From a phage, in sequence record NC_100129.1: DNA of 50,984 nucleotides; one strand, 5' to 3'. Both the position numbers and the translations under genes were made by a program. Below, in pieces: positions 9,581 through 45,028 of the stretch (the first letter of the stretch is position 1; each line of letters starts with the position of its first letter). Under the pieces are notes generated by a model that did no database searches, had not been told where the DNA came from, and saw nothing but the letters and a program-made list of their open reading frames with translations.

Positions 9581-9679
9581 GATTTTTCTCCTATTGTCAC
9601 ATTACGATGCTATACATGATAGCGGTCGCAATGATAACGGGTAACGGTAGAACAAACAAGCGCCACATGATAACAATCC

Positions 9680-9943: not shown

Positions 9944-10097
9944 ATTCTAATGGGTAGTGACCATATGCAACGCGAAGTAGAATCATTGCAGCGCCCCAAT
10001 CAAGCTGCATATTGTTTTTCGTTCCACCTTTTACCGCCTCGCGTGCTGTTTGTTGCGCCTGGTCAAATGCTTTCTTGCTATATACTACCATTTTCAT
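9912..10097 (-). CDS. hypothetical protein (61 aa)
   Basis: ORF with GAGGAAATGAAA RBS, downstream of dyad motif 10148-10167. Confidence 0.45.
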   Translation of the reverse strand: MKMVVYSKKAFDQAQQTAREAVKGGTKNNMQLDWGAAMILLRVAYGHYPLEFAEAYYKHES

Positions 10098-10147
10098 TTC
10101 CTCATGTTCGTTTCGATGAAATAATTATGCCCGACAAAATGCCGGGC

Positions 10148-10167
10148 GTTTTAACAAAAAGTGCTAT
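10148..10167 (-). promoter_or_regulatory. dyad motif copy (reverse orientation)
   Basis: Minus strand reads ATAGCACTTTTTGTTAAAAC, then hairpin, CATAAT, TCATCGAAACGA, RBS, ATG of 9912-10097 gene. Confidence 0.6.
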
Positions 10168-10424
10168 TAGTGGATCATTCCGTGCTGAAAATTCCACGAA
10201 TCGACAAATTCTTGCATGTCATTTCTGATCTGTTCATGCCATTTTTCAAGCGGGAGTTTTTTTGTCTCCTCAAAGCTCATATCCAATGCGCTTGAAAATT
10301 CCCACGGATCGCAATCAATCATCTTTTTCACGTTAGGGTTTTTATCAAGCGCATCGCAAACCATAGCGCGATAAAGCAACCATTCGCCACACTCATTTAA
10401 ATAAACGCTTCTTTCTTTTTGCAT
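10167..10424 (-). CDS. hypothetical protein (85 aa)
   Basis: ORF; stop adjacent to dyad motif. Confidence 0.5.
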   Translation of the reverse strand: MQKERSVYLNECGEWLLYRAMVCDALDKNPNVKKMIDCDPWEFSSALDMSFEETKKLPLEKWHEQIRNDMQEFVDSWNFQHGMIH

Positions 10425-20562: not shown

Positions 20563-21073
20563 GATTAGCCCTCATTGGTTGGTATGCCTTCATTTTAGCT
20601 ATTTGATGCGTTTAGTCAATAGGTGATTTGTTTTTTCTGTTTTCTAAACGCTTCTTTTGGGCTTAAGAACAAAATCTGATTATAAGTGATTGAATATCAG
20701 GTTGTTATTTTTCTGTTCTCGCGTTCGCGTATCTGCTCAGCTTTATACATACATATGCAATACCCAGTGAGCATCTGTAATTACATAAATCAATACACTC
20801 ACCAAACATGCTACACACCACAACCCAATGAAACACAGAGAACAAATAAAAACAAATATAGATACATAGATAAATAAACTCTTTATTTTTTATGTATATA
20901 GATGATTTTACTGTCTATTGTTTGTCCAATTTGTGTTTAAGTTTTGCGCTAAAATTAAGGAGGTGTGAATTTGATAACAAGCGAGAACAGAAAAAACAAA
21001 TAGCACTTTTTGCTAAACTCGATGTTCAAGATCTTGTATAGTTGGAAACAACAACAACTAAGGAGATACAAAG
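20563..21073. other. large non-coding divergent control region (candidate ori/regulatory)
   Basis: ~510 bp without credible ORF; G-poor A/C-rich top strand; GTTCGCG repeat and AT-rich palindromic element ACATAGATAAATAAACTCTTTATTTT. Confidence 0.6.
21000..21017 (+). promoter_or_regulatory. dyad motif copy, variant (ATAGCACTTTTTGCTAAA)
   Basis: Upstream of lipoprotein cassette; TATAGT ~25 nt downstream. Confidence 0.55.
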
Positions 21074-31384: not shown

Positions 31385-32010
31385 CTATTTTTGGTGCATC
31401 ATTTCTAATGCTTTTTGTTCCATGATTCGCAAATCGTTTAAGGCCATTTCTTCATCTTCTATTTTATAGATTCTGAACAACATCGGCAAAACATTATAGT
31501 CAAATCCGTAAGCACCAGATCCGGCGCTTCTCCACTGCGTTTGCATTGCACAAAAAACATCCCATGACTGCATCATGCTTTCATCGAAAATAACCTCCGG
31601 CGGCTCCTCGCCTTCGTAGTCGGCGCGTGTTAATCCGACCGCTTCAAGCTCTGCGTCTGTCGGTGGCTTCTGGTAAAACAGGTAAACCGCGCGCCTTAAC
31701 CCTTTACGCGCTGACCAGCCAGAGCGCCTAAGTAGGATTGAACGAGCGCCAACGCTGACCCAGGGTAATAATCGACTAACAGTTTTGCGTTTTCGTGGTT
31801 AAATTCTTCTTCAAGATCCCAACCCGTCGCAATGTTCATGATAAAGTCAGAATCTTTGATCCCCTCTTTCCGGTAAAGCTCCTGTACTTCCGTCGCTTTC
31901 TTGTGCTTCACGGTGAAAATGATTTTCTGTTCGCTACCGTCAGGCATAACGAAGTTTACTGGTAGCTTGAAGTCCGGCAGTGGGCCAAGTGTTAATTTCA
32001 TCTTTGCCAT
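31385..32010 (-). CDS. tail assembly chaperone G-T fusion via -1 programmed frameshift
   Basis: -1 frame is open from heptamer A_AAG_GGT (31699-31705) through the 31385-31576 ORF; verified by manual translation. Confidence 0.6.
31696..32010 (-). CDS. tail assembly chaperone (gpG-like)
   Basis: 104 aa between major tail and tape measure; ends at slippery site AAAGGGT. Confidence 0.7.
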   Translation of the reverse strand: MAKMKLTLGPLPDFKLPVNFVMPDGSEQKIIFTVKHKKATEVQELYRKEGIKDSDFIMNIATGWDLEEEFNHENAKLLVDYYPGSALALVQSYLGALAGQRVKG

Positions 32011-33980: not shown

Positions 33981-34450
33981 CTCCGGCGCAATCCAGTTAC
34001 CAGGCCAAATCCGCCACCATGCTTACGGTTTAGCGCCTCGTACATTTTTCCCCACGGTGTCTGGCGGATCATCTTTCCGCTTGCGTCATTAGTCACGCGG
34101 TCAAACGTCTGACTAAATTCTCCAGTCAGGGAAAACGACGAAATACGGCGTGAGTAACTCTCCACGCTCTCACCTTCCTGTTTCATAGCTCCGTCCAACG
34201 TCATAAGGTGCAAGGTGTAAAGCGCAACCGCTTTCGGGTATGAGTTTTTAAACCTCTTTTTGCAAACAAACTCTTTAGAAAGCTCAATCCATGCCACAAT
34301 TAAATCGGGATCAACTTGTTGCATTGGCGGCGCTAACTTCACGATTTGCTGCATGATTTCAGCGTCTGTGTAAAATTCATCTACCATTTTGTTTTCTCCA
34401 GATGTGACAAAGGGCGCATAAGCGCCCCAATTATTAATATTCGCCGCCAT
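33968..34450 (-). CDS. head-tail connector/adaptor protein (by position)
   Basis: 160 aa in head-tail joining cluster. Confidence 0.45.
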
Positions 34451-34700
34451 CCTCTAGCTCTTTGCGGCTCTTGCCCTCGGTAGGATCTTTTTTGCGCTTC
34501 TTCTCCGCTTTCTCCTTGATTTGCTCGTTAATTTCTGAATTGTCTTTAACTTCCACATCTCCGCGAGCGATCAGGTATTCAATTGCGGAATCATTAATGC
34601 GTTCGGATTCAATTTCAATTTCATCACCAGGATGATAACGCTTACCGTTCATAATAATCATGCAAACGCCAGTTACTTTAAGTTTTAAAGTTTTGCTCAT
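34434..34700 (-). CDS. hypothetical structural protein (88 aa)
   Basis: ATG with GGAG RBS just after terminator hairpin following capsid gene. Confidence 0.4.
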
Positions 34701-34711
34701 TTTGTGTGCTC

Positions 34712-34746
34712 CGTAAATAAAAAAAGGGGAACCATTAAGGCTCCCC
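34712..34746 (-). terminator. terminator after major capsid gene
   Basis: GGGGAACC..GGCTCCCC hairpin followed by T-run on minus strand. Confidence 0.65.
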
Positions 34747-34757
34747 ATGTTATCTAA

Positions 34758-35732
34758 TTACGCATCCTTTTTCAAGCCAGTAATTAGAACCATCGTAAAC
34801 GGACGGTAAATTGTAAGGCCAGTGCACTTTGAAGTACAAGGAACTTTAAAATGCAGATCTTTCGGCTGTGCAGGCAGCATATTGAATGCCTCCGGGATCT
34901 CAATGCTCATGTTCATTGGATCTTTTTCGTAAACCAGGCAGCCTTTAGTGCCTTTGCCGTCAATATCCTCAAGCTCTGCAATGGAGTCGATGGTGATACC
35001 GTCGTTTTGCTTCTGGAAGTATTCCAAATAGCTTTCAGTGGTATTTTCCATTCGAACCGTAAGGACTTTACGCATAGACGGCGGAATCAGGATGTTAGTC
35101 GCGCGATGCTGACCTTTGGTTACTTCCTCGATCGTTTCGATTGCAGTCTCCAGTTCATCGCTTGCAACTTCTGGAAACTTGGTGTTTCCGTCGTTACTCA
35201 GCCATCCTTTTGACGTGATTTTAGTCAGGTTTGGATGATCGAAAACGGAAACGATCTTATGAGGCTTGGAACCTTTGAAAACCAGGAAGTTAATAAGCTG
35301 ATCATGTGCATTCTGCGCTGCGTTAGCCTTGCGAGTAGAAAGGCTTTTACCAGTTCGCTGACCTGCTTTGATTTCGTCAATTGAGATCAGGAAAGCGTTA
35401 CCCATGCGGAACACTTTGCCAAACTCAGAAGTCATAAGAGCGTCAACGGTCGGCAGGTCGTCGGTGTAGTCTGCAATAATTTTCGCGTAACCAACTTTAT
35501 CAAAAGTCTGATACTCGAAAGTTTTGTCGGTGTCGCTCAGTTCATTGGTGACAGGGAAGACGCGAAGCGCAGAACCCGCTGGATACTCTTTTTCGTAAGC
35601 AGTGGATCGGATTTTGTGCAACTCCTGAGCAGTCCAAATACCCATGTCGGAAGCATCACCCTTAACACCTTGCAATTGCAGGTGATTAGACACAATGGAA
35701 GCGTCTAGCTCATCATATTTTTTCTTTGTCAT
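34758..35732 (-). CDS. major capsid protein
   Basis: 324 aa; AGGAG RBS; flanked by terminator hairpins; position after scaffold/decoration genes. Confidence 0.7.
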   Translation of the reverse strand: MTKKKYDELDASIVSNHLQLQGVKGDASDMGIWTAQELHKIRSTAYEKEYPAGSALRVFPVTNELSDTDKTFEYQTFDKVGYAKIIADYTDDLPTVDALMTSEFGKVFRMGNAFLISIDEIKAGQRTGKSLSTRKANAAQNAHDQLINFLVFKGSKPHKIVSVFDHPNLTKITSKGWLSNDGNTKFPEVASDELETAIETIEEVTKGQHRATNILIPPSMRKVLTVRMENTTESYLEYFQKQNDGITIDSIAELEDIDGKGTKGCLVYEKDPMNMSIEIPEAFNMLPAQPKDLHFKVPCTSKCTGLTIYRPFTMVLITGLKKDA

Positions 35733-35744
35733 GATTTTTTCTCC

Positions 35745-35823: not shown

Positions 35824-36606
35824 TTAAGTGCCTACTGTTTTACTGAACACTATGTCAAACTGATCAGCAACTCCAGAACCGTCGTTTGCAGTCCAGTTAA
35901 CATTAACATGTCCGCCTACTCCAGTAGGAACTACAAGGCCAGTGCGACTAACGCTTGCAACCTTTGGATCTTGCTCGTTTGTAATCGTCCACTTCCCCGT
36001 TTTGTCGTCAGCCCATGTTGGAACAACGGTTACTTTTAGCTGAACGTTGTCAATTGTTTCTGTTCCCTCTACGTAACCATTTTCGGCCTCAATGATCGCA
36101 CCAGTAAGAAGGTATTTTCTATGATGAAGCGGCGTTATTCTGACTCCGACTATGTTCATTGTTTCATCAAACTTGTAAAAGTCACCAGTAAAAATCCAGC
36201 CATCGACGATTTCATCCCCATCACTACTTGCTACAAAACCATCATTGTTAACATAAACAAGATCGCCATGTTCAGGCGCAGACTCAATCGTTTGAGTTAA
36301 GCACCATACAACCCCTCTTGTTAAAATGTTGATAGAATCTCCTTCCTTATAGTCAGAGTATCCGTCTTCCTCGTTAACCGTTGTCGTGATATTGCTCCTT
36401 ATAGCAACACCAGCAACCACAGCATCACCCTCTTTGTGATCAACAAATATGTTGTAACCTTCAACTCTTTCTTTAAAGAAAACAACCTTTCCAGCGATGA
36501 TGGATTCAGAACCGCAAACTCCAGTGCCATCAATATTGTAGCGAGTAGAATCAACTAGGCATCCAGGACAGGAAAGCCCCATAACAGATGAGTAATCTTT
36601 AGCCAT
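35824..36606 (-). CDS. capsid decoration-like protein, long paralog
   Basis: N-terminus MAK...YNIDGTGV... paralogous to 36768-37169 gene; AGGAG RBS; terminator upstream. Confidence 0.5.
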   Translation of the reverse strand: MAKDYSSVMGLSCPGCLVDSTRYNIDGTGVCGSESIIAGKVVFFKERVEGYNIFVDHKEGDAVVAGVAIRSNITTTVNEEDGYSDYKEGDSINILTRGVVWCLTQTIESAPEHGDLVYVNNDGFVASSDGDEIVDGWIFTGDFYKFDETMNIVGVRITPLHHRKYLLTGAIIEAENGYVEGTETIDNVQLKVTVVPTWADDKTGKWTITNEQDPKVASVSRTGLVVPTGVGGHVNVNWTANDGSGVADQFDIVFSKTVGT

Positions 36607-36621
36607 CTCATTTCTCCTTAC

Positions 36622-36652
36622 ATAATAAAAAAAGGCGCTCAAGCGAGCGCCT
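36622..36652 (-). terminator. terminator between decoration-like paralogs
   Basis: GGCGCTC..GAGCGCC hairpin followed by TTTTTTT on minus strand. Confidence 0.7.
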
Positions 36653-36767
36653 TAATTTTAGCTTGGGAAGACTTGAACTTCAAACAAAGTCAACAAATCG
36701 CTACCAGTACCAAAAGTGGTTTTATCTCCAGTGTAGATCCAGTTCGTATTGATTGCACCAGCACTTT

Positions 36768-37169
36768 TCACACCTTGCCAGTGTTTTCATCAATTTTCAC
36801 AGGCTCGCGATATTGTGGAGTTTTTGATTTATCAGAATCATCGCCAACCATCCAGACTCTGCCCTCGGTCATAACGTTGATTCCGCCGCCAGCCTCATAA
36901 ACCATTCGCCCATTATCAGCCGTGGTTTGAAAGTGCGAGCGGATGCCAACGCCATAAGGAACATCACCACCACCAGAAATAGCGTCGATCAGCTTATTAC
37001 CCATTGAGTCAACGCCTTTTAGCTTAACAGCCACGCCAACCAGGATTGGGATGCCGTCTTCTTTATCAAGAACGCAAGCGCCGTCAATGTTATAAGCGGA
37101 AGTGTCAGACACCTGACCAGGAAGTGCGCGCGCCATTACGTCAAAGTAACTTGCTCCAATTTTAGCCAT
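36768..37169 (-). CDS. capsid decoration-like protein, short paralog (possibly truncated by frame break)
   Basis: MAK...YNIDGACV...GVGIRS motifs shared with neighbour; a 42-codon -1-frame extension downstream resembles the paralog C-terminus. Confidence 0.5.
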   Translation of the reverse strand: MAKIGASYFDVMARALPGQVSDTSAYNIDGACVLDKEDGIPILVGVAVKLKGVDSMGNKLIDAISGGGDVPYGVGIRSHFQTTADNGRMVYEAGGGINVMTEGRVWMVGDDSDKSKTPQYREPVKIDENTGKV

Positions 37170-37185: not shown

Positions 37186-38298
37186 TTATTTCAGTTTAGC
37201 AAAGCGAGCGTTTGGATTAAGAGGCTTGTCTTCGTCTTCCTTATTGGAACAGAAAGAGTCACCCTTAACTGCTTGTCGCTGAGCTGCCATTTTATCAGAA
37301 GTCTTCGCAATATCGAAAGCGGTTTCGATGTAAGCGTCAGCCTTGTCTGATACGTCCGCACCAGTAACCTCTTTGATGTAAGCAACCTTGATTGCTTTCG
37401 CATCCAGACCGTCGCACTTGATGCCAATCTCTGTAGCATCAGCAACAAGCGCGGCGTGCGCTTCTGCGTCAGCTTTGGCCTGCTTCACAGCTTCTTCAAT
37501 CTTAGCCGGAATGCCATCAACCTTAGCCTGCAATGCGTCGCGCTCCGCCTCCAGTGATGCGGCCTTGTCTTTCTCGGCTTTAGCGTCAGCTTTCAGGTTG
37601 TCAATGTGCGCTGCAACTTCTTTCGGTACATCAAATTCTACAGCGCCATCAAGCTTAATTTTAACGTTCATTTTTTCATCCTCTTTGTTTGAAATATCCT
37701 CGTCACTATACGGAAAATCTTGCTCACTATCAAGGTTTAGTTTAGCGACTCCGGCACGACCACGGAAAACTAGCGCGATATGATTAACTCGGATGTTCGT
37801 CTGAATTGCATCGAACTTAACCCAATCAGGAGAATCAGGTTTCCAATCTTCTTTCATATCTTCTTCAAAGAAATATTCACCTGTCTGATTATTGCCCCAG
37901 CCTGGCTTGTCAATATCAACGGACGTGTAACCTACAGATATTTCAGCCGTGGCTCGTTTCTTCGCGCTATCGATCGCACGTTTAGAGTAAATGCTTAACG
38001 GCACTTCTACCCCAATCCCGTTTGGAACGCCAGCGCCAGCACAGGAACCAACAACCACTTTTTCCGCGTTCTCAGGCGTGACGGTAACATGCCCGATAGT
38101 GATCGGCTTGCCTGCGAACGTCTCCAGGGAGTCGGCCTTGAATACCTCTGAAGCTGGGCGAAATTCACGTCGAACGCCGAAAGGAGTTTGGTACTCCTGC
38201 AAACCGATACGCGCCACAATTGGGCGATCCACTAAAAACCCGTTATCGTCAAAGTGCGCTTTGACGCGCACACTATCAAACCTTTGTTTTGCCTTCAT
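37186..38298 (-). CDS. putative prohead protease/scaffolding protein
   Basis: Globular N-terminal half plus Ala/Lys/Glu-rich coiled-coil C-terminal half; between minor head protein and capsid genes. Confidence 0.45.
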   Translation of the reverse strand: MKAKQRFDSVRVKAHFDDNGFLVDRPIVARIGLQEYQTPFGVRREFRPASEVFKADSLETFAGKPITIGHVTVTPENAEKVVVGSCAGAGVPNGIGVEVPLSIYSKRAIDSAKKRATAEISVGYTSVDIDKPGWGNNQTGEYFFEEDMKEDWKPDSPDWVKFDAIQTNIRVNHIALVFRGRAGVAKLNLDSEQDFPYSDEDISNKEDEKMNVKIKLDGAVEFDVPKEVAAHIDNLKADAKAEKDKAASLEAERDALQAKVDGIPAKIEEAVKQAKADAEAHAALVADATEIGIKCDGLDAKAIKVAYIKEVTGADVSDKADAYIETAFDIAKTSDKMAAQRQAVKGDSFCSNKEDEDKPLNPNARFAKLK

Positions 38299-38312: not shown

Positions 38313-39059
38313 TTAATCCCATTTTGGAATAGCCCAACAACGACAACCAAATTCCTCGCCAGGGAAAACATGGTTTTCACTCAGCATAATCAGTTTACCT
38401 TCCCATTGGACGTGTTTCAATCGCTCGCGCTCGTCTAACATCCCGTGCCAGTAATAGGCCGACACTCCGGCATCATAAAGGCGCTGGCGCATCAGGCGAC
38501 TATTCCACGCGCCCACCATATTTTCCGCTCTGGTCTTTCCCCATGAGCTATAGACGGCGAATCGCTTCTCAGCCAGTTCATTAACCTGTTGGTCACTGCT
38601 GCCGCGAAAATTGGCGTTACGGATATTTGTTGACCAGTCAGACACGATGTTGGTAAACAGTTTTCTCAGTGATGATTCAGTAAGCCCAAGCCATTGACCG
38701 TATAGCGTCCTATACCATTCTTCTTGTGCGTTCGCCCCGACCGCGACCAGAACAATGACAGCTACGTTATCTTTGCCGCCAGTAGCGCGCGCGATGTTAA
38801 TAAACTGCTGCGCATTGAATTTGTAGATCGCCAGTGCGATAGCCGGAAGGCTTGAAACGATGGCGCTGATTAAGTCGGTAGACAGATTGTTGATCTCATC
38901 CTCTGCCGCGTTAATCTCTGCGTCGCTTGCGTCAAATTTCATTGCCTTTGTCCGGCGGCGCATCAGCACAACCAGATCTCGAATCGCCTCCTGAATTGAG
39001 CGGCTTAATTGCCGCTCGCTGGCTTCAGGAAAGCGCCATTGTTTAACGGCGCGTTTCAT
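38313..39059 (-). CDS. minor head morphogenesis protein (Mu F / SPP1 gp7-like)
   Basis: C-terminal HVFPGEEFGCRCW motif typical of this family; immediately downstream of portal. Confidence 0.65.
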   Translation of the reverse strand: MKRAVKQWRFPEASERQLSRSIQEAIRDLVVLMRRRTKAMKFDASDAEINAAEDEINNLSTDLISAIVSSLPAIALAIYKFNAQQFINIARATGGKDNVAVIVLVAVGANAQEEWYRTLYGQWLGLTESSLRKLFTNIVSDWSTNIRNANFRGSSDQQVNELAEKRFAVYSSWGKTRAENMVGAWNSRLMRQRLYDAGVSAYYWHGMLDERERLKHVQWEGKLIMLSENHVFPGEEFGCRCWAIPKWD

Positions 39060-44743: not shown

Positions 44744-45028
44744 TTATAACGCATATTCGATTTCCCATCGTGCGAACTCATCAAAATCATGTTGCGTCAG
44801 TGGGCGATCTTGAGTTGCGGCCTCTTCCATCATTTCGGTTAGAGTTTCGTTCATGAACGGGAAAGGATGCTCCAGGTCGTAGCATCCAGCCAGGCATCGT
44901 GCAAAATGTCGAACTGATTTATACTCTCCGCGATTGATAGTGTAAGGTGAATTTTTAGAATCATCCCAGCCTCGACGGCGAATTTCTCTTTCAAAGCCAT
45001 TGATAAGCATTTTTCGCATAGTTGCCAT
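44744..45028 (-). CDS. hypothetical protein (94 aa)
   Basis: ORF; stop abuts dyad motif. Confidence 0.5.
   Translation of the reverse strand: MATMRKMLINGFEREIRRRGWDDSKNSPYTINRGEYKSVRHFARCLAGCYDLEHPFPFMNETLTEMMEEAATQDRPLTQHDFDEFARWEIEYAL

Follow-up and report, generated by a model that had tools for sequence, protein, structure and literature searches.

The window analysed here, a stretch of phage DNA of 50,984 nucleotides (NC_100129.1), carries on its minus strand a capsid cement protein gene whose reading frame is broken mid-way. To judge from sequence comparison, the 133-codon ORF at 36768-37169 and the open tail that continues from it in the -1 frame to 36658 belong together as the two halves of a single gene, and this broken gene is a homolog of the gene for T1 gp49, the dominant trimeric beta-tulip cement protein. 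The cement gene itself is already known: it is that of a T1 gp49-type protein, here with a private 2-nt frameshift. The break is very probably a private, non-programmed insertion of 2 nt, regardless of whether it represents a mutation or an error.

The phage is Warwickvirus-like (Drexlerviridae, T1-like) and infects E. coli. The region around the break shows 83-99% identity to 45 records of Warwickvirus-like Drexlerviridae, which are T1-like E. coli phages. The ORF map and the Pfam matches give the gene order DUF2213 protease, gp49-like protein, gp48-like protein with a Big_2 domain and major capsid protein, and the order of the head module is identical in BabyEgg, PeterMerian, FritzSarasin, tunus, tiwna and MatMar. 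These genes all lie on the minus strand. The head-morphogenesis gene at 38313-39059 is part of this T1-like head module. The gene for the DUF2213 head maturation protease/scaffold (37186-38298; PF09979), annotated in relatives as 'head maturation protease' or 'prohead protease', lies directly upstream of the cement gene. The 5' part of the cement gene (36768-37169) consists of 133 codons and ends with a premature TGA at 36770-36768, and the 3' part in the -1 frame (36658-36771) contains 36 conserved codons, KSAGAINTNWIYTGDKTTFGTGSDLLTLFEVQVFPS, and ends with TAA. A terminator scan detects a terminator-like hairpin with a T-run at 36632-36653 on the same strand, 4 nt past the stop codon of the tail, with a 9-bp stem that contains 6 GC pairs. 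The portion of this hairpin within the five-relative alignment is mostly kept in the relatives, and the hairpin marks the true 3' end of the cement gene. The intact paralog of 260 aa, the T1 gp48 homolog, is located at 35824-36606, and the major capsid protein gene is located at 34758-35735 (PF09950 Major_capside, E 2.2e-53).

When the two open frames are joined to give a repaired protein of 169 aa, this protein matches T1 gp49, the 158-aa chain of PDB 9KZJ/9KMG/9KMH, over residues 1-152 with a phmmer E value of 4.6e-36, and the 255-aa BIG2 chain of the T1 head with an E value of 8e-13. The 260-aa paralog matches the latter chain (9KZJ chain H, T1 gp48) over its full length with an E value of 1.6e-15. 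In agreement with its cement domain and C-terminal Big_2 Ig-like domain, it covers positions 4-144 of the 146 positions of PF22758 and also matches PF02368 (Big_2).

The names given to the gp49 homolog across GenBank are inconsistent. They include 'HtjA', 'capsid decoration protein', 'putative zonula occludens toxin', 'putative scaffolding protein', 'beta-galactosidase' (BEBK14), 'putative preneck appendage protein' and 'hypothetical protein', and none of these annotations uses 'cement protein', the name from the T1 head structure. The record of Escherichia phage BEBK14 (MN158214.1, 27578-29333) gives a two-piece match that spans 1756 nt, as compared with 1701 nt of the query, and this phage may hold approximately 55 extra nt within the cement/MCP region relative to the window.

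The ORF of 133 aa, which the sequence-only reading had reported, is present in the ORF list, and translation of the -1 frame confirms that this frame is open for exactly the 42 codons quoted there, KHWQGVKSAGAINTNWIYTGDKTTFGTGSDLLTLFEVQVFPS. The ORF matches PF22758 (Phage_cement), entitled 'Structural cement protein (E217 gp24/Pam3 gp6)', with 74.3 bits, and this match is truncated, covering profile positions 3-115 of 146. The match of the repaired protein has 83.5 bits and covers positions 3-135, and both scores are above the gathering cut-off of 27 bits. This extension of the match from position 115 to position 135, with the rise from 74.3 to 83.5 bits, indicates that the tail is the C-terminal part of this gene that the ORF lacks. 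The ORF had also been regarded as a paralog of the N-terminal part of the protein encoded at 35824-36606, and this relationship holds: by BLASTP the repaired protein is 32% identical to that protein (E 6e-15), with residues 1-168 colinear with residues 1-159. The tail had been thought to resemble the very C-terminal end of the longer paralog (GHVNVNW..., within the Big_2 Ig-like domain), but this match is not significant (E 19). Instead, the tail aligns colinearly with paralog residues ~128-159, where the cement domain of the paralog ends, and …NWIYTGDKTTF…LFEVQVFP of the tail lies opposite …GWIFTGDFYKF…IVGVRITP.

The homologs of the repaired protein are complete at this end. The 120 homologs listed from a search of 5.8 billion proteins are all 155-172 aa long and nearly all cover at least 96% of the repaired query, and a form of ~133 aa is not found among them. 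In alignments of 26 and 33 of the listed homologs, four residues, G137, W143, G147 and L161, do not vary, and T141, T146, T150, E163 and V164 are nearly invariant. The tail of the window keeps all four invariant residues and is undecayed, differing from BabyEgg by a single synonymous change. In the AlphaFold2 model of a homolog with 93% identity (P0001; mean pLDDT 82.6, pTM 0.81), the fold is predicted to be all-beta, and two long strands, 139-152 and 159-166, fall within the part missing from the 133-aa ORF. A complete single-chain cement domain, which spans ~155-172 aa including the C-terminal strands, is not encoded by this ORF, which ends at codon 133 and at profile position 115 of 146. 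Its 133-aa product would be without the last two beta-strands predicted by the model; it most likely misfolds and is probably non-functional.

The comparison of orthologs that had been proposed as a check was carried out, and it locates the break. The related phages examined contain a continuous gene of 169 codons: it measures 510 nt in each of the five aligned relatives, and a CDS of 510 nt and 169 aa follows the protease gene in seven relatives examined, including BabyEgg, PeterMerian, FritzSarasin, tunus, tiwna and MatMar, where it is annotated as 'capsid decoration protein', 'HtjA' or 'hypothetical protein'. In the nucleotide alignment with the five relatives, which are 83-99% identical to the window, the sole length difference within the gene is a 2-nt insertion. 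At the junction the window has GGCAAGGTGTGAAAAGT and the relatives have GGCAAGGTGAAAAGT, with GTT in tiwna; aligned with the window sequence, GGCAAG--GTGAAAAGT is found in four relatives and GGCAAG--GTTAAAAGT in tiwna. The insertion is a private tandem duplication of 2 nt (GT or TG), which gives GTGTG at 36769-36773 on the minus strand where the relatives have GTG or GTT. As a result of this duplication, ...AAG GTG AAA AGT... (K V K S) becomes ...AAG GTG TGA, and frame 0 reads GTG TGA, while the tail frame begins at the second GTG, 36771-36769. A search with 151 nt across the site matches 44 phage records, and in every one of them the matched span falls short of the query by exactly 2 nt. This result indicates that the insertion is private to this genome. 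Exact-pattern scans do not detect the mutant junction in IMG/VR, where the result is uninformative because the wild-type junction is absent as well, or in the JGI metagenomes, where it carries little weight with the mutant pattern alone scanned. The exact 133-aa product is not on record in public assemblies.

A census was made of every indel that distinguishes the window from two relatives of ~98% identity, MatMar and BabyEgg, with compensated pairs in divergent patches set aside. The cement gene is the only gene broken mid-way by an isolated indel private to the window: a gain of 2 nt (GT) at 36772, recorded as 'ins_in_window 2' against both MatMar and BabyEgg. The remaining indels lie in ribosome-binding-site spacers (T5 vs T6 at 9588, and T6 vs T5 at 35740, the latter at the MCP start), between genes (a 1-nt deletion at 20700), 7 nt past the stop codon of the major tail protein gene (C5 vs C4 at 32103), in a likely intergenic position upstream of the probable start of the 34434-34748 ORF (A7 vs A5 at 34724) and in the last codons of a 94-aa ORF (-2 nt at 44749/50, ...ECALYK to ...EYAL). 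The last of these affects a hypothetical ORF at 44744-45028 on the minus strand; the relatives have TATATAG and the window has TATAAC at 44749/44750, so that the C-terminus reads ...WEIEYAL rather than ...WEIECALYK. It is another dinucleotide-type indel and is probably harmless. The sites at 9588 and 35740 share the motif CATGATTTTT(T)CTCC, upstream of two minus-strand genes, whose reverse complement, GGAG-A5/6-TCATG, represents a ribosome-binding site and a start codon. The T-run shifts at these two sites are opposite relative to the relatives, from T6 to T5 at 9588 and from T5 to T6 at 35740. Besides the indels, ~80 nt at 10089-10168 match a second site in MatMar and BabyEgg with 88.75% identity in the orientation opposite to that of the main alignment, suggesting a short inverted repeat between two genome regions.

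We consider it somewhat more probable than an even chance that the GT insertion is a genuine and very recent replication-slippage mutation that has been fixed in the sequenced stock. The change of GTG to GTGTG is a typical product of polymerase slippage and is not a homopolymer miscall, which favours a real mutation. Scattered homopolymer errors are not found in the coding regions, which indicates an assembly without random indel noise and likewise favours a real mutation. The possibility that the sequence is at fault carries appreciable weight, although we hold it to be less probable than not: a consensus or assembly error would mean that the phage carries the intact 169-codon gene and that the deposited sequence alone contains the extra GT. 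This possibility agrees with the uniqueness of the insertion among 44 related records and with the perfect preservation of the 36 downstream codons. General experience with phage genomes in databases, where a private frame break in a conserved structural gene is often an error, also speaks for an error here. In addition, the insertion hits the principal cement protein, and 120 of the 120 listed homologs of this protein are full length; in T1 it is structurally integral (PMC11945409). A null allele of the dominant cement protein is a priori unlikely in a viable isolate that packages by the headful mechanism, and such a viable null mutant would be surprising, which favours an error. However, an insertion of 2 nt outside a homopolymer is not typical of any common sequencing platform, and no other mid-gene coding indel is found relative to the 98% relatives, so that the assembly is otherwise accurate. 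The undecayed tail fits an error and a real mutation equally well. We lean slightly towards the real mutation. The proposal of the sequence-only reading that the break is either a sequencing error or a recent pseudogenising indel stands as to its kind, since none of 44 records shares the break, but the change is a GT duplication of 2 nt and not a change of 1 nt in the A4 run.

In the sequence as written, the GT duplication brings a TGA into frame after codon 133, and the -1 frame then holds the final 36 conserved codons. If the duplication is real, a viable phage would need at least one of three rescue routes. In the first route, peptidyl-tRNA-Val would re-pair at a low level from GUG at 36773-36771 to GUG at 36771-36769 during the pause in which UGA in the A site awaits release factor 2, and the product would be exactly the wild-type protein of 169 aa, ...GKV-KSAG.... 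In the second route, termination would be followed by reinitiation at the GUGA overlap of stop and start, and two fragments would be produced, the second of 37 residues; according to the model, the split would fall in a predicted surface loop between strands. In the third route, the loss would be tolerated, with paralog B (gp48-like) still present and intact. Re-pairing by +2, reinitiation and compensation by the paralog are thus inferred as candidate rescue routes. An independent start of the 37-codon ORF driven by a Shine-Dalgarno (SD) sequence is rejected, since the sole SD-like sequence, AAGG, lies 1 nt before the GTG, which is too close; for this ORF only coupled reinitiation stays conceivable.

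It is established that peptidyl-tRNA can re-pair with an overlapping codon while a slowly decoded codon occupies the A site (PMC10732093, citing Weiss et al. 1987). As in the 'shifty stop' systems (Weiss et al. 1987; prfB-type, next to UGA), GUG_UGA of the window has a slowly decoded stop codon in the A site and offers a re-pairing codon, an identical GUG 2 nt downstream. In contrast to the prfB-type site, it would have arisen by accident from the duplication, with no selected signal, and its efficiency is presumably low. It seems improbable, though not negligibly so, that the duplication is real and normal heads are nevertheless formed, either by tRNA-Val re-pairing at a useful rate or by complementing fragments from reinitiation. 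If true, this would be a natural +2 'shifty stop' or a split-protein rescue of an important structural gene. Restoration of the frame by re-pairing would give a species of ~18 kDa with SAGAINTNWIYTGDK and a Glu-C peptide across NTGKVKSAGAINTNW....

The site had also been suspected of deliberate slippage that produces a short and a long isoform, like the T7 10A/10B pair. Ribosomes would then shift by -1 (equivalently +2) near the stop codon, and the 133-aa and 169-aa isoforms would both be used in a programmed manner. This reading agrees with the codon arrangement in that GUG_UGA permits perfect re-pairing of tRNA-Val two nucleotides downstream, beside a stop codon; the shifted product would equal the wild-type protein, and the general re-pairing mechanism is documented (PMC10732093). 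However, none of 44 relatives has the break and the homologs are single continuous proteins. The presence of one continuous 169-codon gene in the relatives indicates that the site is not a programmed recoding site. The overlap GAA AAC ACT GGC AAG GTG TGA is also without an X XXY YYZ heptamer, a stimulatory RNA structure is not indicated (MFE -19 kcal/mol against a shuffle mean of -19.7, z 0.27), and the short product would be without two core strands of the predicted fold and is unlikely to be a useful isoform. Transcriptional slippage typically needs a run of A or T of 8 or more, and a homopolymer long enough for it is not found at the junction, where the sequence offers just two runs, both A4, at 36784-36787 and at 36765-36768. 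The likeness to T7 10A/10B is limited to the fact that the 3' end of a capsid-associated gene likewise continues in the -1 frame. The T7 gene 10 site serves to make two capsid isoforms, whereas the break in the window is absent from 44 relatives and without slippery heptamer or stimulator, and its 'extension' is, by the predicted structure, part of the core fold rather than an add-on. Programmed recoding is thus largely refuted by the comparative data, and we regard it as very improbable.

A position elsewhere in the window would be a better candidate for genuine recoding than the cement gene. Past the major tail protein gene, at 31696-32010 on the minus strand and in the region 3' of it (MatMar L006 9967-10592), two small ORFs, both annotated in relatives as 'tail length tape measure protein', precede the real tape measure gene. 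The tail assembly chaperone pair, with its conserved programmed -1 frameshift, usually lies at this site.

The reading in which a 1-nt loss in the A4 run at 36784-36787 (T4 on the plus strand) caused the break has practically no chance of being correct: one A added there does join both open frames arithmetically, as had been claimed, but it gives ...IDEKHWQGVKSAG... where the family has ...IDENTGKVKSAG..., the GAAAAC run within GATGAAAAC is identical in all six aligned sequences, that is, in the window and its five relatives, the five codons that separate the run from the stop encode, in frame 0, NTGKV as in the family, and the only length difference of the gene is the GT insertion at 36769-36773, which lies 11-18 nt further 3' on the coding strand. 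The A4 homopolymer is ruled out as the lesion by the alignment of the five relatives.

What is at stake in a broken cement gene is seen from the T1 head (9KZJ). Its T=7 capsid carries 80 gp49 homotrimers and 60 gp48:gp49x2 heterotrimers at the threefold and quasi-threefold axes, a trimer count that gives ~360 copies of gp49 per head; gp48 and gp49 both have the beta-tulip fold, and gp49 is ordered over residues 2-158, with its N-terminal arm inserted into the inner capsid surface (PMC11945409). The beta-tulip of gp49 is analogous to that of lambda gpD, a trimeric cement protein, and gp49 forms trimers at threefold positions, but the N-terminal arm of gp49 enters the inner capsid surface, unlike lambda gpD (PMC11945409). 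For lambda gpD the likeness is one of fold, drawn for T1 gp49. The gene of the window is a clear homolog of that of T1 gp49 and shares its gene order, and its product is predicted to have an all-beta fold; in contrast to T1 gp49, it is interrupted after codon 133, and the ~36 residues lost are ordered in the T1 structure (PMC11945409). The paralog at 35824-36606 shares the cement and Ig-like architecture of T1 gp48 and is intact.

In annotation, a single disrupted gp49-type cement gene, with a frameshift or a possible sequencing error, is the appropriate entry for the two ORFs, rather than a short 'decoration protein' with an orphan ORF or a recoding site. Should the mutation be real, the isolate would suit the measurement of +2 re-pairing at GUG_UGA, a modest and specialist use, and the phage would be a natural mutant with which to test whether the main cement protein is needed for the stability of a T1-like capsid.
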